Shown here: positions 7,683 to 18,802 of the stretch, in pieces | How the letters are laid out: every line of letters begins with the position of its first letter | Numbering within the stretch: position 1 is the stretch's first letter | The notes under the pieces: model-generated | Told to the model about the DNA's origin: nothing | Database searches by the model: none | The model's input: only the letters and a program-made list of their open reading frames with translations | Made by a program: the position numbers and the translations under genes | DNA from: Candidatus Bathyarchaeota archaeon | Lineage (GTDB): Archaea > Thermoproteota > Bathyarchaeia > Bathyarchaeales > Bathycorpusculaceae | Reading direction: 5' to 3' | Assembly (NCBI GenBank): GCA_963717465.1 | Contig: OY970340.1 | Span: forward strand, 2,432,001-2,496,000 | Length of the DNA: 64,000 nucleotides

Positions 7683-7933
7683 CAAAGTTAATTTTTTATC
7701 CTTTGCTCATACAAGGCTAAACAAATTATTGGGCTTTTAAACGATTCAAAATCAAGAATAATCGCACCTTTGATTTAGTCATATTACCTTATGTTCCGTT
7801 GCAGATGTCTTATCTGTCGTTCATTCGGCCTTTTCTATCGTTCAGCATTTTACATTACTATTTGGGATGTTAAAAGTTTTTATTACTGCTTGCTCTGTTT
7901 CATTATGCTCCCTTAAAAAACATGTATCTCGAC

Positions 7934-8012
7934 GGGGCCGTCGTCTAGCTTGGATTAGGATACACGCCTGGGGCGCGTGCGATCCTGGGTTCGAATCCCA
8001 GCGGCCCCACCA
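7934..8012 (+). tRNA. tRNA-Pro(GGG), CCA encoded
   Basis: GGGGCCG acceptor stem, CACGC-CTGGGGC-GCGTG anticodon arm, GGTTCGAATCC T-arm, CGGCCCCACCA end. Confidence 0.97.
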
Positions 8013-8205
8013 CATTTCTCTAGGATAAAATCAGTTTTAATGCGTCAAAAAAGTTATCTCTAAAACAGGTATAATCCCACAACTACTCGCCGAGTTTTCA
8101 AAGACAAAATATCCGACATCAGACATAATTGCATTAAAGGAAAATTAATCTCATATTGCAGTAGGTGCTCTAAATGAGCAGCAGCATATTGCTGAGTTTG
8201 AAACA

Positions 8206-8676
8206 ATGGCAACCGCCAATCGTGTATCATTGATTGTTCCTAAGACTGAAAACTTGAATGTTGATAGTATTGGAGCTGGCGCAGGAGTTCATAGTCGACT
8301 ATTTGAACTTGGGCATAAAGCAAATTCAATCCTGGTCAGCATGGCCCCAACTAATGAGATGGATCGTTATCTTAATCAGAAATCGCAACGTTGGTGGCAT
8401 ATAAGAACTCTCTTTGAGCAAGATTTAATCAGCATCCCAAACAACCCAAAATTAATCAGTCAATTATCCCAAATGCGATACGAGTTTACAACAACAGGCA
8501 AAATTAAAATTGTAGACCCTGAAGGCAAAAGCCCCGACTACGCGGACAGTTTAATGTTAACTCTGATTGGTATGGTTAGGCCGTCTCAAGGCTCAGGCGT
8601 AGTATTTAGCATTTCCAAAGATGCATTAACAAATAGAAAAAAAGTTTTGGATATCCATGAAAATGAGAAAGATTAG
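8206..8676 (+). pseudogene. Viral terminase large-subunit C-terminal (nuclease) fragment
   Basis: VDSIGAGAGVHSRL and KSPDYADSLML motifs; ATPase domain absent; lies directly after the tRNA. Confidence 0.75.
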
Positions 8677-8952
8677 TAGCGCTGTTGACGAGAAAAAATG
8701 TAGAGGTTGTAGTAAAAGCTTTCAAGCAAGAACAAAACTGGTTACTGCAAGAAGTGTTTTGGCCGCTTTGTATCAGTCCTGCAGGAATAGCTGCTAAAAC
8801 AAGATATCTGGATAAAACGTCAGACTATAGACATCAAACTTTAGATTTTAAATTTGATTGCATTTTACTTTGATATGCAATTTACTAAATGATTGGCAAT
8901 TAGCAATTTCTTATAGCAAAAATTATAACTGATTCTACAGAAATAGGAATAT

Positions 8953-9510
8953 ATGTCTGCCTCTGATAAAGACAAACGTATTCTTGAATTGGCTAAGAGT
9001 GCATACGATTTTCAAAACGACTTAAGAGAACGCCTAGATTGTAAATTAAACAATTTCGTAGGAATAACTGGAACGGTTTCGACAATTAGCGTCGGCGTTG
9101 CGTTATTTGTCTTCCAAACAATCAAACAGATTAATCCCTTTTATCCTTACTTGGTGACTGCTTTTATCATATTTTTTGGATTTCTCATCTCTGCTATGAT
9201 TATTGGATTAAGAGCCTACAGACCATCAGATTTGTTTATATATCCTGAAGATCCTGAACAAAGTATCATCGACTATTCACAATGTTTGACTGAAACTGAT
9301 GTTATCAGAGTTGTTGCAACTTCTTTCGCAGAGGCAGCTAACGAGAATAAAAAAATGAACAAGACTAAATCTAGCATATGCCAATGGGTGTTTCGTCTCT
9401 TAGTAATTGGAGCAATTGTGTTTGTGGTCTTCGCTATACTAATGGTTGCAAGCTTAGGCAATACGACTACTATAATTCAAACATATGTCACAAATCAAAC
9501 TGGAATATAA
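8953..9510 (+). CDS. Hypothetical membrane protein (about 3 TM)
   Basis: 185-aa ORF with hydrophobic helices. Confidence 0.65.
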   Translation: MSASDKDKRILELAKSAYDFQNDLRERLDCKLNNFVGITGTVSTISVGVALFVFQTIKQINPFYPYLVTAFIIFFGFLISAMIIGLRAYRPSDLFIYPEDPEQSIIDYSQCLTETDVIRVVATSFAEAANENKKMNKTKSSICQWVFRLLVIGAIVFVVFAILMVASLGNTTTIIQTYVTNQTGI

Positions 9511-9937
9511 AAGGCAATCATTCGAAGAATTTGGGTATAAAACTAACACAAATCAAATAAGCATGATTGAACTATAAGAAATATAACAAAGCAAGAAAAA
9601 GGAGTAAAGAAAGTTGAGTAAATCCTGTAAAGATGCAGATACTAAGAGCCGAGCAGCAGCTCAAGCGGGTTGGAAAGCTGATAAAGCTCAAATAAAGAGA
9701 TTAAAAGAAACTAGTTCAGATTAATCCTATTTTTTAGTCCGAAAGTTTGTAAATGAATCTTTGGATTAAAGTTTAATTATCCGCAGCTGGGGGACTCGCC
9801 CGAAACCCGCTACTCCACCAAGTAATTTACAAGTGACCATTTAAAGAGTAATATTTTGGCCGGCTTGTAAGAGAATCGGGTCAATTTGGTCGCATGAAAA
9901 GAATGCTTTCACTTGAGGAGGTTAGAATGGCCCCGCC

Positions 9938-9948
9938 CGGCCCCACCA
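9938..9948 (+). repeat. tRNA-Pro 3' end copy 1 (CGGCCCCACCA)
   Basis: 11/11 match to the tRNA end, in an AT-rich intergenic region. Confidence 0.55.
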
Positions 9949-10476
9949 ACTCAAACAAGAAAAACTACATTTCTTTCTCTTTATCTCACTACTAAACAGA
10001 ATTAAGGTTCAAGGTTTTTCCAAATTTGTTATGGTTTCAGGGAATTTTCCGGATTTTTTGCCATAACAACAGACTATTTTTTCACATATAAGCGTTGAAC
10101 TGTTTGGCATAGAAAAGGCATAGATGAAAACGTATAGGCTTAACTTTAATTCTGGTTAGGTTTTGATAAGTAAATCAATGCCCGTTAGGCTTAAAAGCGC
10201 AGATAAACTTGCCACTCCGTTATGTATCTAGTAATCATAGCGATGAACTGTAGCATAATTCAAACCTCTGTTCAGCGAAAGAGCGTCATGGTTTAGCGTT
10301 GTTTCAGTTCTGTTTTGTGGTATCTCTAATGCTTAGTTGTTAGCTATAACCGGCTTCGATAAAATCGGATATGCAGCTCATTTTTAATAGTGAGGTTTTG
10401 ACAATATTTAATCAAAGAATTTTGGTATTTCAAATCTGAAATAAGCGTTATATATTATGTATTCAATCTCGAGATT

Positions 10477-11082
10477 ATGGATTTCAACGTTAAAAGAATT
10501 ACTGGTTTGCTTTTCATTGTCTCTGTCGTACAGTTTATTTTTGCGACAATCATTTGCGAATCGGTTTATTCTGGCTATAGCGTGGGACAGCAGGTTGTGA
10601 GTGACTTGGGTAACTGGAACTTAGCGGGCAATTACTCCGCTATCTTCAACATATCGATTATTTTGATGGGCATACTTATCATTGTTGGTGCTTATTTCAT
10701 ACAACGAATATTTAAGAGCGCTTTCACGCCAGTTTTCATGTCTCTTGGGGTATTACTAGGCGTGGGTTATATCGGGGTAGGCGTGTTCGCAGAGAATATT
10801 TCTCGATTGCACAACATTTTTGCTCTAATTATGTTTGTATTTGGAGCGATTTTCGCTATTATGTCTTATAAATTCGTAAAATCGCCTTTTTCCCACGTAT
10901 CTATTATCTTGGGTGTAACATCGCTTTTAGCATATTTTCTTTGGATGTTAGGATTACAAATGCCTGTTTTCCATTTGGGCTTAGGCATAGGCGGCATGGA
11001 ACGTTTAATACTCTACCCCATACTCCTATGGGTATTAAGCTTCGGCGCTTACTTAATCGGAGACCAAGGCAACATAAAGTAA
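10477..11082 (+). CDS. DUF998-family membrane protein
   Basis: YSVGQQVVSDLG, GVGVF.E..LH, GGMERLILYP motifs. Confidence 0.8.
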   Translation: MDFNVKRITGLLFIVSVVQFIFATIICESVYSGYSVGQQVVSDLGNWNLAGNYSAIFNISIILMGILIIVGAYFIQRIFKSAFTPVFMSLGVLLGVGYIGVGVFAENISRLHNIFALIMFVFGAIFAIMSYKFVKSPFSHVSIILGVTSLLAYFLWMLGLQMPVFHLGLGIGGMERLILYPILLWVLSFGAYLIGDQGNIK

Positions 11083-11261
11083 AAAAAACATAAAATAAAC
11101 CAGATAACGCCCGAATGTTGACGACTTAATTTTTTTAAGTGTTCAATATCAATTTTCCGTTCAGCGGATTTTACATAATAGTTTTGATTATTTGTAAGAA
11201 AAACGAATAATAAAATAAAATCGTAACGCCACAACGTTAAAAATATTTTTATTATAAGAAT

Positions 11262-12170
11262 CTAGTTAACTTCAGCAGTTGGTTGGATGCTAACTTCAGT
11301 AATTGGTTGGATGCTAACTTCAGTAATTGGTTGGATGGCGCGTATATTATTGACAGCCTTTTTAGGAATGAAACCAATCAGCCGCTTATTTTTAAACAGA
11401 TCTTCATAAGTGGATAAATAAAATAGCCCAAACGCAATTGTCAAATAGACCACTGGTAAAACTAGACCACTTTGGCTTATTGCTACAAAAAATGGATATT
11501 GAAATAGATAGATTGGGTAAGTTAATCGACTTAGTTTTCTTGTTATGGCAGGCGCCTTTTCAATTTTTAATGGCATATGAACAGTTCTAACCCCTACGAA
11601 GAAAACAAGAAGCATGACAGGTAATTCTAAGGCGCAAACGATTAAACTTGGTGATGTTGCAAATTGCATAAATTCTAAAATAAAAGCTACAGTAAAAATT
11701 GATATTGCTATCTTAAATGAAAGCTTATTGACCATGTAAATGCTGAAAAATACGTAACACAGCATTATGAATGGGACAAACCACAATGAAAACCAAGCTG
11801 TTCCTCCAGTGCTAAGGGATTGTAGTAGAAATAAACTGGAAATTTTATAGCTAGAGGTTAGTCCAGGGGTAACGCCGAACGTAAGTACAAGTGCTATCAG
11901 GTATAGCGGATACAGCCTGAAGAATCTTTTAATGACATACTTTACAGGATTAAAATTATCATTTGAAGTAGCTTTGGCCAGAAAACCAGCTGTGTAAGCG
12001 AACAAGGCTACTCCAGTTATACCAATAAGGCAAACAGGCCACTGAAAAACCGACGAAAGCGGGACAGAGAAAATAATAGAATGCTCAATAAGCACTAAGA
12101 TGACGCCTATTACCTTTAAGTAATCAACCGCGGCCGAGTCAGATTGCGTAATACTAGGTTTAGAGTCCAA
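11262..12170 (-). CDS. Acyltransferase-3 (OafA-like) membrane protein
   Basis: VDYLKVIGVILVLIEH, GVALF..AGF, KRFFRLYPLY, TYPIYLFQ motifs. Confidence 0.8.
   Translation of the reverse strand: MDSKPSITQSDSAAVDYLKVIGVILVLIEHSIIFSVPLSSVFQWPVCLIGITGVALFAYTAGFLAKATSNDNFNPVKYVIKRFFRLYPLYLIALVLTFGVTPGLTSSYKISSLFLLQSLSTGGTAWFSLWFVPFIMLCYVFFSIYMVNKLSFKIAISIFTVAFILEFMQFATSPSLIVCALELPVMLLVFFVGVRTVHMPLKIEKAPAITRKLSRLTYPIYLFQYPFFVAISQSGLVLPVVYLTIAFGLFYLSTYEDLFKNKRLIGFIPKKAVNNIRAIQPITEVSIQPITEVSIQPTAEVN
11267..11338. repeat. 3 x 24-bp coding tandem repeat
   Basis: Unit TAACTTCAG(T/C)A(A/G)TTGGTTGGATG(C/G), encoding IQPITEVS repeats. Confidence 0.9.
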
Positions 12171-12179
12171 GGTAATTAC

Positions 12180-12207
12180 TACAACCGATGAAATACAACC
12201 GATGAAA
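12180..12207. repeat. 2 x 14-bp tandem repeat TACAACCGATGAAA
   Basis: Exact duplication just upstream of the acyltransferase start. Confidence 0.85.
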
Positions 12208-12467
12208 ATCGATTATAGCCTTTGTGCGTATAAGCCTTTGACGCAAAATTTGCCATTATCAATTTTATGACTACCCAGCTAGTTACCCAAAATTACTCAG
12301 CTAATTACTCACAAACCGACATAGAATTATTGAATATCATCAAGACTTTGACCTTTGGAAAACATCAGCCAACTTGCCGTTTTAACCGCGATATAACTCT
12401 GTTATTTAAGGCGTAGGAAAGAAAAAAATGGATAATTTGCAGGATATCCCCCATTAGGGGATAAGAG

Positions 12468-12488
12468 CAAATCCCAGCGGCCCAACCA
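12468..12488 (+). repeat. tRNA-Pro 3' end copy 2
   Basis: CAAATCCCAGCGGCCCAACCA versus tRNA CGAATCCCAGCGGCCCCACCA (19/21). Confidence 0.9.
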
Positions 12489-12685
12489 CGACAATCCCGT
12501 CCCAAGAATGGTATATTTATTAACATCATTTTTTTCTGTGAAGGTTTTGCCTTAAATTGGCAAGGAATAGTTGACTTTCCTCCTCGATGAAAACATGTGT
12601 AGCCTTCTTTTAGTTCAGGCCTTCGGTTCGTCTTCGTAACATTAGAGACATATAGTCCAATAGCTTATCATGGAAATAGCAAAGG

Positions 12686-13636
12686 GTGAGTTGGTTGAGT
12701 GATCAGAACATTCGATTGAACATTCGATTGAGGGAAACCAAGCGTTTTGATATGCAACGAAGAGTTGTAGCGCACATGGTTTCGGAATCGTGGTACACTA
12801 TTCCACATGTTTCCTATCTATACGAGCCAGATATAACAGATTTTTATGAAGAATTTAATTCGCTCGCAGAAAATGGAGCTTTTTCCGGGCGCAAAATATC
12901 ATTCAATACTCTCATTATCCGTGTAATAGTCGAAGGCCTCCAATCTGCGCCGAACCTAAACGCTCTAGTTTCATATAACCATAAAAAAGGGGAAGGCGAA
13001 TTGCGAATTTGTGAAGACATCAATGTGGCCATCGCTTGGTTGTTGCCGGACGGAAGGATGATAACACCAGTAATTCTCAACACTGAATCAATGACCTTGG
13101 TTGAACTTTCCGAGGCTATCACCACATTAAAAGAAAAAGTAAAAAATACTAACATAGATGAATTACTTTATCAAGCAGCATATGCAGATACCGTAAAGGA
13201 ACTTAAGAAACTGCATCTAAATGTGCTTAGGCGAATTATAGCTTCTAAAATTAGTTTTCACCGAGTACAAGGACTTTCTGGAAGAAAAAAAGGAAGCTAC
13301 TATAAAATTCCTCAAGGCGATCGTCTAACAGAACAGAACCTGGTCAGCGGTACAGTAACTGTATCTAACATTGGATCACTATACAAAGAGCAAAAAGGAT
13401 ATTTCGGTATCCTTGAAATTATTCCGCCGCAAATTTTCACTATAGGTTTAGGGGCCATGCAGGAAAGACCTGGTGTTTATGTTACTAAGGACGGCGAGAA
13501 AAAAATTGGCGCCCGAAAGGTTCTCCCAATGTGTTTAGTTTTTGATCATCGCGCCATAGATTTTGGCTCAATAATTCCTTTTCTAAAAAAATTAGACGAA
13601 ATTTTCCTAAAACCCGATGCACTTGCTCAATTGTGA
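12686..13636 (+). CDS. Stand-alone 2-oxoacid dehydrogenase E2-type acyltransferase catalytic domain
   Basis: IPHVSY, GTVTVSNIGS, IIPPQ, LVFDHRAID motifs; no lipoyl domain. Confidence 0.85.
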   Translation: MSWLSDQNIRLNIRLRETKRFDMQRRVVAHMVSESWYTIPHVSYLYEPDITDFYEEFNSLAENGAFSGRKISFNTLIIRVIVEGLQSAPNLNALVSYNHKKGEGELRICEDINVAIAWLLPDGRMITPVILNTESMTLVELSEAITTLKEKVKNTNIDELLYQAAYADTVKELKKLHLNVLRRIIASKISFHRVQGLSGRKKGSYYKIPQGDRLTEQNLVSGTVTVSNIGSLYKEQKGYFGILEIIPPQIFTIGLGAMQERPGVYVTKDGEKKIGARKVLPMCLVFDHRAIDFGSIIPFLKKLDEIFLKPDALAQL

Positions 13637-13707
13637 AACTTATAAACGGTTAAAGCTTTTGTGAGCGATTCAACACTCGAACTAAGATATAAAATGGAAA
13701 GCTCATG

Positions 13708-13754
13708 GATGACGCCACCAAATAGCCAATGTTCAAATTCCAGCTGGTCCGCCA
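13708..13754 (+). repeat. 23-bp arm + degenerate tRNA-Pro 3' end copy 3
   Basis: GATGACGCCACCAAATAGCCAAT-GTTCAAATTCCAGCTGGTCCGCCA. Confidence 0.75.
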
Positions 13755-13905
13755 CTACTTAATACCTATTTGCTTCTTGCGTTACCAAGAATCTAGTTAT
13801 TACCGAAGAATTCTGTGCCACATCAATAATTGACTTCGGTGTTTCATAGGATGAAGAAGACAGGATGTCTGAAAATCACGAAACGCAATCGGACGGGTTT
13901 TCTGG

Positions 13906-14598
13906 CTATCTTAACAATTTGATAATTTCTTTGGCTGGCAACACCCTAGCAAAACCTTTTCGCAAGACTCTTAGTTCAGGTTCTTGCATGTCGGGATCAT
14001 CTGTCGAGGTTACATCGCTCCCGAAGACAACTTTGAAGCTTCTTTCGTAGGCTTGACGGGCGGTCACCCCACAGCAATAATTTGTTAGAGTGCCACAGAT
14101 AATAACAGTGTCCTTTCCCATGTTCTTAAGTATCGTCTCTAATTGCGTATCGTAAAAAGCGCCATAAGAAGCCTTGTGGATTACTACCTCATCGTTCCCA
14201 GGTGATAATTCATCCCAAATATGTCCTTCTACAAAAAAGGAAGACTGATCAACATTCAATTCTAAATAGCGATTAGGCATAGCAGAGCCAGTCTTTGGGC
14301 GATCAAGATAATTGTTAGTTTTTGAAAAGACAGTAAAAATGACAGGTATCTTTCTGCCTCTGCAATGTTCTATCAGTCTCTTTATGAGGGGGACCTGCAT
14401 GCTTGCTTCAGGAACCCAGAAAGGTGTCCACCCCGGCTTAACGAACTCGTCCTGCATGTCGATGACAAGCAAAGCGCATTTCTCAGGCAAAATTTCGAAG
14501 CCAGCAACACCTTTTGCGTAGGCGCGTTTGGCGAGAGCTAGAACTTGTTCTTGGGTGTATGATTTATCACTCACAGCTTTCCCCTCGAGAAATTTCAT
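13906..14598 (-). CDS. Isochorismatase-family cysteine hydrolase
   Basis: ALLVIDMQDEF, IHKASYGAFYDT, GTLTNYCCGVTARQA motifs. Confidence 0.9.
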   Translation of the reverse strand: MKFLEGKAVSDKSYTQEQVLALAKRAYAKGVAGFEILPEKCALLVIDMQDEFVKPGWTPFWVPEASMQVPLIKRLIEHCRGRKIPVIFTVFSKTNNYLDRPKTGSAMPNRYLELNVDQSSFFVEGHIWDELSPGNDEVVIHKASYGAFYDTQLETILKNMGKDTVIICGTLTNYCCGVTARQAYERSFKVVFGSDVTSTDDPDMQEPELRVLRKGFARVLPAKEIIKLLR

Positions 14599-14669
14599 TA
14601 GTCGCGCGAAAGCTTTTAGTTTTTGCTATTCTCTTAGGGCTTTTATATTTTCTGTTAAAGATTAAAAAG

Positions 14670-14715
14670 GGTGATTTCATCAAACGTCTGATGTTCAAAT
14701 CCCAGCGGCCAACCA
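14670..14715 (+). repeat. 23-bp arm + tRNA-Pro 3' end copy 4
   Basis: GGTGATTTCATCAAACGTCTGAT-GTTCAAATCCCAGCGGCCAACCA. Confidence 0.88.
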
Positions 14716-14907
14716 CAGGCTTATTTTTCCTAAACAACTTCTTGCCAACATTATAATTAACCAGGCACAATAAAGCTTGTTTTAGAATGGCACACTGCTT
14801 GGTCAGTATTTTGGCTGGTATGGTGTAATGGTTTTTGCTGCTTTGTTTTGTCTCGCGTTTAAAAACCGCATTCCCAACTTTATTTTCCGTTACCAGGAAC
14901 TTGGGTT

Positions 14908-15447
14908 TTAGCGGATGAACATCAAACCAAAATATGTTGGTTGTTGATTATGCGTTTTCAGAACGTCTATGTCAAAACCATTCTTCCTTGCTGTAGCATA
15001 AACGTCTATGCTGGAAGATTCCATTGAAGGTCGAGCCAACCGAGGATAATTGCAATGCTCAAGATTACATTTTTCGCAACGTTCACAGGGACCAGCTGGA
15101 AGCCCAAATGCAGAATGATACCCTGCCAGAAAAATATGCCTCTCCAATTTGGCAACCAAGTTGTGCGTCGCAACCGATTCATCGGGCAGTTTCATTAAAA
15201 TAGCGTTGGAATAACTTGCCAAAACCTGCCTCATCTTTTCAGGCGTAGGACTGTAAGGCGGACAAGTCAAGGATTTTCCAAATCCTCCACAGCCATACTG
15301 GCACTTAAGTCTTACCCAATCTTTGACAACAATACTCTTAGGATCAACCATTTTAGCATCAAGTACGCCCAATCGTTTCGCAAACTTGATAAAACCTTCA
15401 ATATCTTGCTCAAAACTCCTCTTGACCGTTGCGGTTTTCTTTTGCAC
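14908..15447 (-). CDS. DUF2284 metal-binding protein
   Basis: VRLKCQYGC..G.SLTCPP, GPCERCEKC, ARPSMES..IDVY motifs. Confidence 0.85.
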   Translation of the reverse strand: MQKKTATVKRSFEQDIEGFIKFAKRLGVLDAKMVDPKSIVVKDWVRLKCQYGCGGFGKSLTCPPYSPTPEKMRQVLASYSNAILMKLPDESVATHNLVAKLERHIFLAGYHSAFGLPAGPCERCEKCNLEHCNYPRLARPSMESSSIDVYATARKNGFDIDVLKTHNQQPTYFGLMFIR

Positions 15448-15664
15448 ACTGCAGCCCCCTACAACATCTTACGATGATTAAATATATAAAATGAAAAGAA
15501 ACCTGAGAGGCTGAGTGAAAAAATGTGAAGGGTACCTATTAGCCCTGTAGGCTTCGAGTTCCAATGGGCCTGGGACTCCATAGAGCCTAACTCTCTTCAA
15601 GTTTGGGGGTGAGTCCGCCCGATTCATCTTCAAACTGTTTCAAATAGTTCCAAGTGAAAATTTT

Positions 15665-15728
15665 AAAAAAAGGGAAAAACGGGTGATGCCACCGCACATC
15701 CGAGGTACAAATCCCAGCGGCCCCCACC
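15665..15728 (+). repeat. Arm + tRNA-Pro 3' end copy 5
   Basis: A-rich lead, then GGTGATGCCACCGCACATCCGAG-GTACAAATCCCAGCGGCCCCCACC; near-identical to 16510-16572. Confidence 0.92.
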
Positions 15729-15856
15729 GTGATAAAAGCACTCGTTTCATAGCTCTTTTGTCACAATCTGCCAGTTCGAAAATAACGTTCTTTTAAAGAA
15801 CCCTTCACATAGCTTATAAGTAAGAATATTCTTACTTCATTGATTGTGGAAGCAAA

Positions 15857-16114
15857 ATGGAAGCATCAACAACAAAGGTCTCCTCCAAAGGGCAAGTAGT
15901 GATCCCTGCGAACGTGCGAAAAGCTGCTAGCTTGAAGAAAGGCGAAAAAATCCTAGCAATAGCCATAGGTGACACCATCGTCTTGAAAAAAATAGTTGAC
16001 AGATCATTTGAGGAAACGATGAAACCAATTTGGGCCAGAGTTAGGCGAATGGGTCTTATGGAGGAAGAAATAAACGCCCTTATCGACGAAGCGAAAGCCA
16101 AAGATAGTTCTTGA
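15857..16114 (+). CDS. AbrB/MazE/SpoVT-family antitoxin
   Basis: TKVSSKGQVVIPANVRK motif; overlaps the downstream PIN gene. Confidence 0.9.
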   Translation: MEASTTKVSSKGQVVIPANVRKAASLKKGEKILAIAIGDTIVLKKIVDRSFEETMKPIWARVRRMGLMEEEINALIDEAKAKDSS

Positions 16115-16511
16115 TACAAATATTTGGGTTTCAGCGCTACTGTGGGGAGGAAAGCCTGCAGAGATCGTAAAAATAGCTGAAGAAGACAAAGTCTTAATCT
16201 TCACAACTGAAGAAATAGTTGCAGAAATCAGCCAAGTTTTAGCTTATAATAAGCTTGCGAAAATCTACGAAGCCGAAGGCGTACATCGCGACCAATTAAT
16301 GGAAATGGTGCTAAAAATTGCTAAATTAGTAAAGGCAACAAAAAAAGTTACGGTTGTTCTTGCGCATCCCGCCGACGATAAAGTAATAGAATGTTCCTTG
16401 GCAGCCAAAGCAGATTACATTGTAAGTGGCGACAAGCACATTCTCGCACTGAAAAGCCACAACAGAACAAAAATATTGTCTGCTAACGAATTTCTTGAGA
16501 GCATAAAATAA
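16086..16511 (+). CDS. PIN-domain (VapC-like) toxin lacking a canonical start codon
   Basis: Frame is open from ACG at 16086: KRKPKIVLDTNIWVSALLWGGKP...HPADDKVIECS..AKADYIVSGDKH. The ORF track shows only the last 70 aa. Confidence 0.85.
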   Translation, partial: TKRKPKIVLDTNIWVSALLWGGKPAEIVKIAEEDKVLIFTTEEIVAEISQVLAYNKLAKIYEAEGVHRDQLMEMVLKIAKLVKATKKVTVVLAHPADDKVIECSLAAKADYIVSGDKHILALKSHNRTKILSANEFLESIK

Positions 16512-16572
16512 AAAAGGAAAAAACAGGTGATGCCACGGCACATCCGAGGTACAAATCCCAGCGGCCCTACCA
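16510..16572 (+). repeat. Arm + tRNA-Pro 3' end copy 6 (distal end of array)
   Basis: A-rich lead, then GGTGATGCCACGGCACATCCGAG-GTACAAATCCCAGCGGCCCTACCA. Confidence 0.92.
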
Positions 16573-17002
16573 CAACGAACAGAGGCTATTATGTGAGCCT
16601 GCAGAAAACAACTGTAATAGAAGCAAGAGTGGGTTTTTATAAGTCCAAGAACTAAAAAATTGAAGGGACTAATAGAAAATGGGTCATTATGTGGGAATAA
16701 AGGAAAACGCTAAACCATTAATATTTGAGAGCGAAAAAGAACCTAACAAGGAAACGCACGCTCAATACGATATAGTTTACGGACCCTTCAAGAATAAAGA
16801 ATATGCAGAAAAGTACGTTAACACGATGGAACATGGTGTTTGCTGCCATCTGGGTTAACGCTCCCACAAATACCAAATTTTCAATTTTTTCAACAATCGA
16901 CACATGCTACCAACAGAGACATAATATTGTCTCTTAGCCAGTTTTCTCATCAATAAATTATCTTGAAAAAACTCAAATAACCCATTTTAAATTCTTTAGG
17001 TA

Positions 17003-18802
17003 GTGGAGAATAAACCGTTGATTGACAAGCCAGTTACATGGAACCTAACAGAATTTTTCAGCAGCATAACAGACCCCAAAATAAATCTGGCCATAGAAGA
17101 ACCTAAATCTTTGGCTGACAAAATTGAGAAGACTTATCGAGGCAAAATCGCCAAGTTGTCTGCGCAACAACTGCTTTCTTGTCTTCAAGAAATGGAAGCA
17201 TTCACTCTAAAATTTGGCGACTTAGCCTTGTACGCGAGTCTTTCATTTGCTGCAAACATGACACTGCCAGAAACGCAATCGCTAAATGACCGTGTTAGCA
17301 AACTTGATGCTGCCATTAGTAAGCAGTTAGCGTTTTTCTCTCTGGAGCTGGGCGCACTTGTTAAAGCTAAACCTCAGATTATCCAAGAGCCAGCTTTAGC
17401 TAATTATAAACATGTGCTTGAACGAGTCTTGCTTCGGGTTGAGCATCAGCTGTCTGAAGTTGAAGAGCAACTAATTATTGAAAAGGACCAGTTTGGCGTA
17501 AATGGTTGGGAAGAACTTCAGAGCAAGTGGCTTAACACCCGCATGTTCGAAGTAATGGTTATGGGCGAGAAAAAAACACTCTCATATGCAGAAGCAAACG
17601 GATTGCTTTCTCACCCAGACCGCTCAACCAGAGAATCAGCTAACCGATCGATTTATGGACTCTTGGGCAAGGATGGCGAGGTTTTCTCTTCATCTCTTCG
17701 GAACATATGCAATGACTGGGTGAATGTTTCTAAACGCCGCAAATACAGTTCCCCAATAGAATCAAGCATAATTGCAAACGATACCAAACAGAGCATCGTC
17801 GATAACTTGCTCGGCGTAGTTGAAGACGGTGTTAAGACTTATCAGCGGTATTTGAAACTGAAGGCTAAATTGATGGGGTTGCCAGTTTTGGGAAATCATG
17901 ATATCGTCGCACCCTTACCGGGCATGCCAGAATTAAAGTTTTCATTCAATCAAGCACAAAAACTAATAACTAAAGCTTACAGCCGCTTCGACAATCAATA
18001 CGTGGACGCAATTAAGGAAATGTTTGCTAAAAATCGCATCGACGCTCAACCCCGCTTTGGCAAACGCAACGGCGCCTTCTGCGCAAGCTACTATAATGGA
18101 AAATCAGCTTTTATTCTGGAAAGCTTCAACGGAACCTTAAGCGATGTCTTCACTCTGGCACATGAGCTTGGACATGCAACGCACGATTGGTATGCATCGC
18201 GAAGTCAAACGCTCATGAATACGGCTATGCCCTCAATCGTTGCTGAAACAGCATCAATTTTCGGCGAACTCCTACTTACCGACCAAATGATAGAAGACGC
18301 AAAAACAGATGCAGAACGCAAGATGGTGCTCTGCCATATCTTAGATGAAGCGGGCATGACAGCGTTTCAAGTGACGGCACGTGTCTGGTTCGAGCAAGCA
18401 CTCTACGATTCCATCGCAAAAGACGAGTTTTTGGATTACCCAACCATTTGTCGCCACTGGACAAAAAACCGTGACCGCATTTTCGGAAATGCAGTAGAAT
18501 GGTTCCCCGAAATGGAAGCAGAATGGACAATGAAACCGCACTATTTCATGGCGAATTACCGCTTTTACAATTACCCTTACGTTTACGCTCAAATGTTCGT
18601 TTATGCACTATACGAGAAATACCTGCAGGAACACAAATCCTTCGTACCTAAATTGAAAAAGGCCCTTTCAGCAGGCAGCAGCGTTTCGCCAATTGAAATT
18701 GGAAAAATAATGGACTTGGATGTCGCGGATCCAAATTTCTGGAAACTTGGGGTAAAAAGGTTTGAGCACTTTATTACCGAGCTAGAAAAAATTAAAATTT
18801 AA
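17003..18802 (+). CDS. pepF: M3B oligoendopeptidase F
   Basis: GKRNGAFC, TLAHELGHA, AETASIFGE, FYNYPY motifs. Confidence 0.93.
   Translation: MENKPLIDKPVTWNLTEFFSSITDPKINLAIEEPKSLADKIEKTYRGKIAKLSAQQLLSCLQEMEAFTLKFGDLALYASLSFAANMTLPETQSLNDRVSKLDAAISKQLAFFSLELGALVKAKPQIIQEPALANYKHVLERVLLRVEHQLSEVEEQLIIEKDQFGVNGWEELQSKWLNTRMFEVMVMGEKKTLSYAEANGLLSHPDRSTRESANRSIYGLLGKDGEVFSSSLRNICNDWVNVSKRRKYSSPIESSIIANDTKQSIVDNLLGVVEDGVKTYQRYLKLKAKLMGLPVLGNHDIVAPLPGMPELKFSFNQAQKLITKAYSRFDNQYVDAIKEMFAKNRIDAQPRFGKRNGAFCASYYNGKSAFILESFNGTLSDVFTLAHELGHATHDWYASRSQTLMNTAMPSIVAETASIFGELLLTDQMIEDAKTDAERKMVLCHILDEAGMTAFQVTARVWFEQALYDSIAKDEFLDYPTICRHWTKNRDRIFGNAVEWFPEMEAEWTMKPHYFMANYRFYNYPYVYAQMFVYALYEKYLQEHKSFVPKLKKALSAGSSVSPIEIGKIMDLDVADPNFWKLGVKRFEHFITELEKIKI

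Follow-up and report, generated by a model that had tools for sequence, protein, structure and literature searches.

This analysis concerns an 8.6-kb row of small gene units that follows a tRNA-Pro(GGG) gene in a genome of the Bathyarchaeia. The window, i.e. the whole stretch of DNA analysed (64,000 nucleotides), corresponds to C1:2432001-2496000 of the 3.05-Mb single-contig source genome (G000), and positions are given in window coordinates unless a genome or locus is named. Partial copies of the tRNA's 3' end, in the orientation of the tRNA gene, divide the row into six units. These copies are scars of integrase attachment, and repeated insertion gave rise to the locus; the small packets of genes between them are likely to be the shrunken remains of mobile elements, inserted successively. 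The features are listed below (position, strand, description and support).

7934..8012, plus: tRNA-Pro(GGG), the target gene heading the array (ARAGORN)
8167..8676 (open reading frame, ORF, 8206-8676), plus: C-terminal fragment of a terminase large subunit, a provirus relic (74% to the terminase of the related genome G121; PHROG 2)
8716..8772, plus: another, short fragment with similarity to an ORF of the G121 provirus (tblastx 74% over 19 codons, E 5.5e-6)
8953..9510, plus: predicted membrane protein of 185 amino acids (aa) without family (weak phrog_23273 match, E 0.015)
9938..9948, plus: site 1, probable but weak, an 11-base tRNA 3'-end relic with no T-loop and no arm
10477..11082, plus: DUF998 membrane protein (Pfam PF06197)
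11262..12170, minus: acyltransferase family 3 (Pfam PF01757, Acyl_transf_3)
12420..12488, plus: site 2, diverged arm and tRNA 3'-end copy, core 12468-12488 (20/21)
12686..13636, plus: stand-alone 2-oxoacid dehydrogenase E2-like catalytic domain (PF00198, 2-oxoacid_dh)
13686..13754, plus: site 3, decayed arm and copy, core 13734-13754 (16/21)
13906..14598, minus: isochorismatase-family cysteine hydrolase (PF00857)
14654..14715, plus: site 4, arm and copy, core 14696-14715 (one base missing)
14720..14761, minus: integrase C-terminus relic of 14 codons (profile score 16.0)
14908..15447, minus: DUF2284 metal-binding protein (PF10050)
15518..15571, plus: cryptic seventh site, second arm type and decayed T-loop (common to G013, G127 and G075)
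15662..15728, plus: site 5, best-kept arm and copy, core 15708-15728 (arm profile E 1.1e-5)
15814..16511, plus: AbrB/MazE antitoxin (15857-16114) and PIN toxin (frame 16098-16511), upstream palindrome included
16508..16572, plus: site 6, arm and copy, core 16552-16572 (arm profile)

Measured between array sites, the units are 1936, 2540, 1266, 961, 1013 and 844 bases long, as had been estimated (about 1.9, 2.5, 1.3, 1.0, 1.0 and 0.8 kb) in a preliminary description made from the sequence. The cargo labels of that description also hold (PHROG 2 terminase, DUF998, Acyl_transf_3, 2-oxoacid_dh, isochorismatase, DUF2284, AbrB/MazE with PIN), as do the mixed cargo orientation (3 of the 9 cargo ORFs are read from the minus strand) and the absence of an integrase: none of the 4 PF00589 matches of the source genome falls in the window. 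Overlooked at that stage were the arm that precedes copies 3-6, the integrase relic at 14720-14761 and the cryptic site at 15518-15571.

Repeated tRNA ends and their upstream arm

Gapped scores against the 21-base 3' end of tRNA-Pro (T-loop to CCA, maximum 21) were 20 for the copy ending at 12488, 16 at 13754, 17.5 at 14715, 18.5 at 15728, 20 at 16572 and 13 at 9948. When up to 5 edits were allowed, the 8.6 kb held five copies on the same strand and none on the opposite strand, with 0.08 expected from the genome-wide rate. Six copies had been claimed: five are real, and the one ending at 9948, an 11-base exact match that falls outside this set, is probably a relic of a tRNA end, if a weak one. 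Downstream copies are frequent in the source genome, where they accompany 13 of 47 tRNA calls (4 mismatches or fewer, within 25 kb).

At sites 3-6, and loosely at site 2, the tRNA end is preceded by an arm made of an A-run, the box GGTGAYRTC-CC and some 10 variable bases; over the four copies 3-6 it is conserved for about 45 bases. The stop codon of the PIN gene lies inside the A-run that opens the arm of site 6. Sites 5 and 6 match each other at 95% identity over 58 bases. Sites with 87-95% identity to these two occur in about ten further records, in part away from tRNA-Pro. The cryptic site at 15518-15571 carries an arm of a type other than that of sites 3-6; it lies within the DUF2284 unit and makes that unit composite.

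The distribution of the arm was assessed with a profile built from the arms of 12 relatives (tRNA core and window sequence excluded). This profile gave 20 matches in G000 at E<5, with sites 5 and 6 on top, versus 0 and 2 in shuffled DNA and 4 when the DNA was reversed; at this threshold the profile missed sites 2 and 3. An iterated model, partly trained on G000, marked 32 sites that lie outside tRNA genes; nine clusters, each confined to a single strand, account for 27 of these. With an arm-only model, matches were obtained in 50 of the 61 genomes searched in the genus and in 87 of the 101 searched in the order (counts that include the source genome, and in which related genomes are not independent), at up to 42 per genome. 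A strict T-loop consensus followed the arm within 25 bases in 27 of 50 matches, compared with a background of 1.5% (36 loci in other genomes). The arm pattern was absent from viral contigs and gave 6 matches in metagenome contigs, none of them with an integrase match.

Arm sites of one tRNA type also occur in islands of another. Ala- and Leu-like ends are mixed behind tRNA-Glu in G000, a non-Pro end lies within a tRNA-Pro unit of L091, and the tRNA-Cys array of G115 contains a Pro-type end. About 110-125 bases past tRNA-Ser(GGA), a Pro-type arm site is found in inverted orientation in two genomes (L140:5136-5201 and L142:16854-16901), within elements that have a Ser-type closing copy of their own. 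Several arm clusters of G000 have mixed tRNA ends, and four are without a nearby tRNA; Rfam searches on seven G000 island stretches revealed no overlooked tRNA, and relaxed ARAGORN runs (525 calls) were too noisy for use.

Further single-strand clusters of arm and T-loop are located in G000:C1 at 1109579-1120475, 1224915-1232337, 1547495-1552588, 226522-234770, 530169-531385, 1501067-1501546 and 2064864-2066472. In G016:C5, behind tRNA-Ala (L213-L214), two related tandem units encode proteins of about 1000 aa and are each closed by a doubled arm. In units that lack a tRNA 3' end, the T-loop is followed by conserved left-end sequences of two families (L219, L224, L225, L222, L223, L227, L190, L193, L194), which suggests elements with non-tRNA targets or with left arms of their own.

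Integrases, relics and cargo

Loci of tRNA-Pro in relatives were sampled as the best 60 listed loci, from 58 genus genomes (7 of the loci have less than 2 kb downstream). A tyrosine integrase lies directly behind tRNA-Pro, on the opposite strand, at 15 of the 60 (8 long, 7 C-terminal relics). Clear downstream copies of the tRNA-Pro end were present at 13 of the 60 and never exceeded two, hence no tRNA-Pro array seen is longer than the one in the window. Gene order varies among relatives; an identical fixed order, which the preliminary description had named as evidence against a cassette array, was not found. The DUF47-tRNA-Pro-pepF synteny put forward for this comparison could not be used because the neighbours are not conserved in relatives: neither DUF47 nor pepF was found at the 60 tRNA-Pro loci, nor any tRNA-Pro in 20 pepF loci.

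A search for an integrase tied to the arm, likewise proposed beforehand, linked the arm, as a mark of the far end of an element, to one integrase family in relatives. The arm type of the window ends an integrase-bearing element of 6.2 kb in G042 and integrase-bearing elements at tRNA-Leu in G058 and G061. Among the matches listed, 15 integrases have an arm within 45 kb, and for 12 of them it lies on the N-terminal side and on the opposite strand; this pairing is based on coordinates and on three elements of which both ends were seen. Integrase clades track the target tRNA, and the single intact family member found in G000 (2397348-2398667) groups with the integrases located at the tRNA-His 5' end and not with the Pro clade. 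In relatives, the integrase genes are whole, with their ends about 35-120 bases past the tRNA, and are not split by the attachment (att) site as in the SSV type. The possibility that the arm encodes an integrase C-terminus split off upon integration was ruled out, as whole integrase genes end across the core.

Integrases of the tRNA-His clade (L001, L234-L240, L244) lie head-to-tail directly upstream of tRNA-His, and other family integrases are found upstream of tRNA-Pro (L044, L060, L066, L070, L078). Partial copies of tRNA 5' ends sit between these upstream integrases and tRNA-His or tRNA-Pro; both groups apparently belong to elements that target tRNA 5' ends.

Collapse of a large element can be followed at tRNA-Pro itself. 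The genome G121 carries a 41.2-kb provirus at this gene, with integrase, terminase and closing copy, and the first units of G093 and G117 (1.5 kb) consist of the first 445 bases (85-88%) and the last 302 bases (93-95%) of this provirus, with other cargo between them. In unit 1 of the window, the terminase fragment (PHROG 2, E 1.4e-6) is 74% identical to residues 304-424 of the G121 provirus terminase (435 aa), and is inverted relative to the tRNA. Past site 4, the 14-codon integrase tail lies on the same strand and side as the intact integrases of relatives; its score of 16.0 was attained by 0.1% of 3000 random windows of 200 bases (8 junctions tested). A weaker, doubtful tail (0.7%) was noted at site 2. 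Scores above the 99th percentile for an integrase tail were reached at 15 of 135 junctions, some of which had contributed to the integrase-tail profile; the controls gave 2 of 135 and 3 of 132.

The DUF2284 protein is 85-91% identical at the aa level to those of G127 and G013 (2 of 5 matches examined), in which it is preceded by an amidohydrolase gene; this gene is lost in the window and the right-hand site is retained. The homology of the three loci stops at the second-type arm and T-loop that they have in common (window 15518-15571), and breakpoints unrelated to the repeats, the other adverse outcome named in advance, did not occur where homology could be traced. From the tail at site 4 and the end of the DUF2284 homology at the cryptic site, it follows that unit 5 is composed of an integrase relic, the right end of another element and a 150-base stub. 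Judged by these matches, units 1 and 5 are decayed elements.

The remaining cargo looks foreign by its closest matches. The E2 domain has 61-67% identity to Bacillota and Chloroflexia records versus 36-39% in 5 of 119 genus genomes, so that the closest relatives found are bacterial; none of 10 loci of E2 relatives holds another gene of the window, and seven genus loci gave no arm site. The isochorismatase-family hydrolase was found in none of 119 genus genomes at E<=1e-40 and has relatives of 70-79% in other archaea and bacteria. The 185-aa membrane protein matched no Pfam or NCBIfam family. Over 7700-17100, Rfam returned nothing besides the tRNA, and a scan for sigma-70 promoters and terminators, which is unsuited to archaea, stayed at about chance level. 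The source genome contains archaeal tRNA introns.

Three tandem 24-base repeats (11267-11338) encode the C-terminal end of the acyltransferase. Past site 6, an ORF of 59 aa without family (16679-16858) has DNA matches of 73-80% in some ten genomes of the genus; G000 contains another copy at 601456-601614. A unit of the tRNA-Cys array of G000 (L161:11050-13237) carries an eRF1-like release factor, an alanyl-tRNA editing domain and a second DUF2284 gene.

Probable accretion with collapse, and its alternatives

The array is probably the product of tandem accretion of integrative elements followed by collapse, in the manner of cis-mobilizable elements (CIMEs). Viruses and islands would be inserted by a family of Bathyarchaeia tyrosine integrases, with the T-loop of tRNA-Pro, or that of a copy already present, as the target, every insertion leaving an arm and a tRNA end. 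Later deletions, constrained to leave the tRNA intact, would take out the integrase and most of the element; one or two cargo genes close to the right attachment site (attR) would persist at the right end, and the junctions would act as further insertion targets. The arm is taken as a putative arm-binding site of the integrase, with crossover in the T-loop, and units 2, 3, 4 and 6 presumably share the origin of the relic units. That the distal sites are the best kept, and that tRNA ends are mixed in arrays, suggests that some insertions used inner junctions or distal ones. The array may now be dormant, given that the sole intact family member found in G000 belongs to the tRNA-His 5'-end clade.

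Several observations weigh against this account. In the G121, G093 and G117 case, the arm subtype differs from that of the window. Seventy-four units between consecutive sites were compared all-against-all: integrase similarity was detected in 5 and in none of the other 69, and about 120 of the 135 junctions have no integrase tail. Right ends are conserved in 33 of 210 pairs above the null and left ends in 10 of 210, and neither a left-arm profile from 15 integrase-bearing loci (best E 0.11) nor an integrase DNA profile gave a match in the window. Units 3, 4 and 6 are whole genes with flanks below 200 bases and no clear relic. The best-kept sites, 5 and 6, are those farthest from the tRNA, where simple push-down stacking predicts the freshest sites nearest to it; this position, together with their matches elsewhere, requires insertion at distal or inner junctions or the arrival of a composite. 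Mixed tRNA ends within one array require an extra step as well.

A tentative alternative, clearly less probable than accretion with collapse, is that the units are true non-autonomous cassettes. Stretches between neighbouring sites would be excised as small circles by a family integrase supplied in trans and reinserted at the tRNA T-loop or at an array junction, and arrays would gain, lose and swap units as integrons do. In its general form, which is held with the same reserve, this would be a tRNA-anchored cassette system in which the arm and T-loop form the site and zinc-ribbon tyrosine integrases of viruses and islands move units of 0.5-3 kb to any array; genes might thereby be shuffled among tRNA islands as by integrons, with double-strand tRNA-derived sites as substrate. 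The dimensions of the units agree with it (median 1.6 kb, 34 of the 74 at or below 1.5 kb, 69 without integrase similarity), as do the integrase-less units of 0.8-3.1 kb that come first behind tRNA-Pro in G078, G046, G108, G100 and G094, one of them with a perfect copy. It would also accommodate right ends that are conserved beside left ends that mostly are not, mixed tRNA ends, Pro-type sites within tRNA-Cys and tRNA-Ser islands, arms that reach 42 per genome, and foreign cargo.

Movement of such units was sought and not found; of the two options offered in the preliminary description the other, integration with decay, obtained direct support. Among the 74 units, none recurred with both borders at a different array position; G099 and G122 share a 2-kb unit (91%), with an identical upstream neighbour. 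The toxin-antitoxin (TA) pair is present in at least 27 of 119 genus genomes, and two copies lie directly behind tRNA-Pro, but its homology begins at its promoter and a closing copy accompanies it at none of 26 loci examined. Compared with 138 collected junctions, no left end of the window except that of site 4 was clearly above the null. Mobile cassettes are also at odds with units 1 and 5, which are demonstrably relics.

It is improbable that the sites were seeded anciently by integrases and the units then shaped, with no site-specific step, by host recombination between arm-T-loop homologies of 50-60 bases (deletion, duplication, conversion). The near-identity of sites 5 and 6 would suit such a process, as would back-to-back arms 61-92 bases apart in G000 and G016 and the tandem paralogous units of G016. 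Yet the units of the window are unrelated to one another outside the sites. Sites 5 and 6 resemble sites in other genomes as much as they resemble each other, in keeping with a single donor lineage; moreover, when direct repeats recombine, whole units are deleted and no foreign genes are imported.

An archaeal integron array without its integrase (a cluster of attC sites lacking integron integrase, CALIN), with repeats that act as attC folded on single strands, can be dismissed almost entirely: archaeal CALINs exist and resemble the locus in their small gene units, parted by a repeated recombination site, and in a TA unit (10.1101/2022.02.06.479319), but here tRNA ends make up the repeats, the sites fold no better than shuffles do (z -1.7 to +1.6; 12 folds, both strands), gene orientation is mixed, and the integron-integrase model TIGR02249 (cut-off 265) gave 43 and 54 bits for two integrases of the family. 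The intact family member of G000 is not IntI. The likeness to integrons noted in the preliminary description is therefore architectural: with no IntI, no attC fold and no common orientation, the array is not an integron.

Relation to known island systems and significance

Accretion with collapse has its closest parallel in CIMEs, which have lost integration and transfer genes, keep their att sites and are stacked at a tRNA end by successive insertion; CIME composites can move together (PMC5704250). In the window, such genes are reduced to the 14-codon relic, attR is represented by arm and core at sites 3-6 and by a diverged arm at site 2, and cores are retained for the left site (attL), with no left arm found in the window. 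The array differs from CIMEs in being archaeal, with units of about 1 kb and left arms that are mostly unrecognisable; one arm is common to elements that target many tRNAs, arrays have mixed ends, no conjugation module was seen, and no intact element adjoins the array.

The tycheposon islands of Prochlorococcus lie behind tRNA genes with partial tRNA copies between elements, and fragmented integrases and extra partial tRNAs remain there as relics (10.1101/2020.12.28.424599). A tRNA gene and direct partial copies flank the units of the window in the same way. Tycheposons and cryptic integrated elements are defined by a site-specific integrase of their own, however, and 910 of 937 tycheposons encode a tyrosine recombinase, whereas no unit of the window does; new tycheposons push older ones inward, whereas here the distal sites are the best kept (10.1101/2020.12.28.424599).

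Among archaeal elements integrated in tandem at tRNA genes, including thaumarchaeal cryptic integrated elements, tyrosine recombinases re-use one site and form arrays (PMC6563490, PMC8371274, PMC7253208), and tandem integration as well as integrase loss after integration have been described (PMC8371274, PMC6563490). The T stem-loop has been proposed as the core site for Thermococcales integrases (PMC7253208), in accordance with a T-loop crossover here. Those elements measure at least 2.6 kb and are defined by their integrase, in contrast to the units of the window; the integrase family tied to the arm is not split by the att site, and a common arm in tens of copies per genome is not described for them in the portions cited (PMC6563490, PMC8371274, PMC7253208). 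The available part of a study of Bathyarchaeia viruses mentions their integrases and no such arrays (PMC10848311), and no description of the arm or of such arrays was found in a literature search whose coverage excluded subscription papers and supplements.

The array is best interpreted as a so far undescribed form of tRNA-targeted accretion followed by collapse, and it belongs to an order-wide family of sites. The arm is a usable marker of island borders across the order and points to an enzyme family and to defined substrates, which makes the question of relics versus live cassettes testable in vitro. Bathyarchaeia are abundant sediment archaea, and the mechanism by which their accessory genome is assembled is not described in the literature searched. 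If the units are relics only, the locus is a well-marked instance of known island building; if they still move, it would represent an archaeal counterpart to integrons, with tRNA-targeting integrases as its basis.

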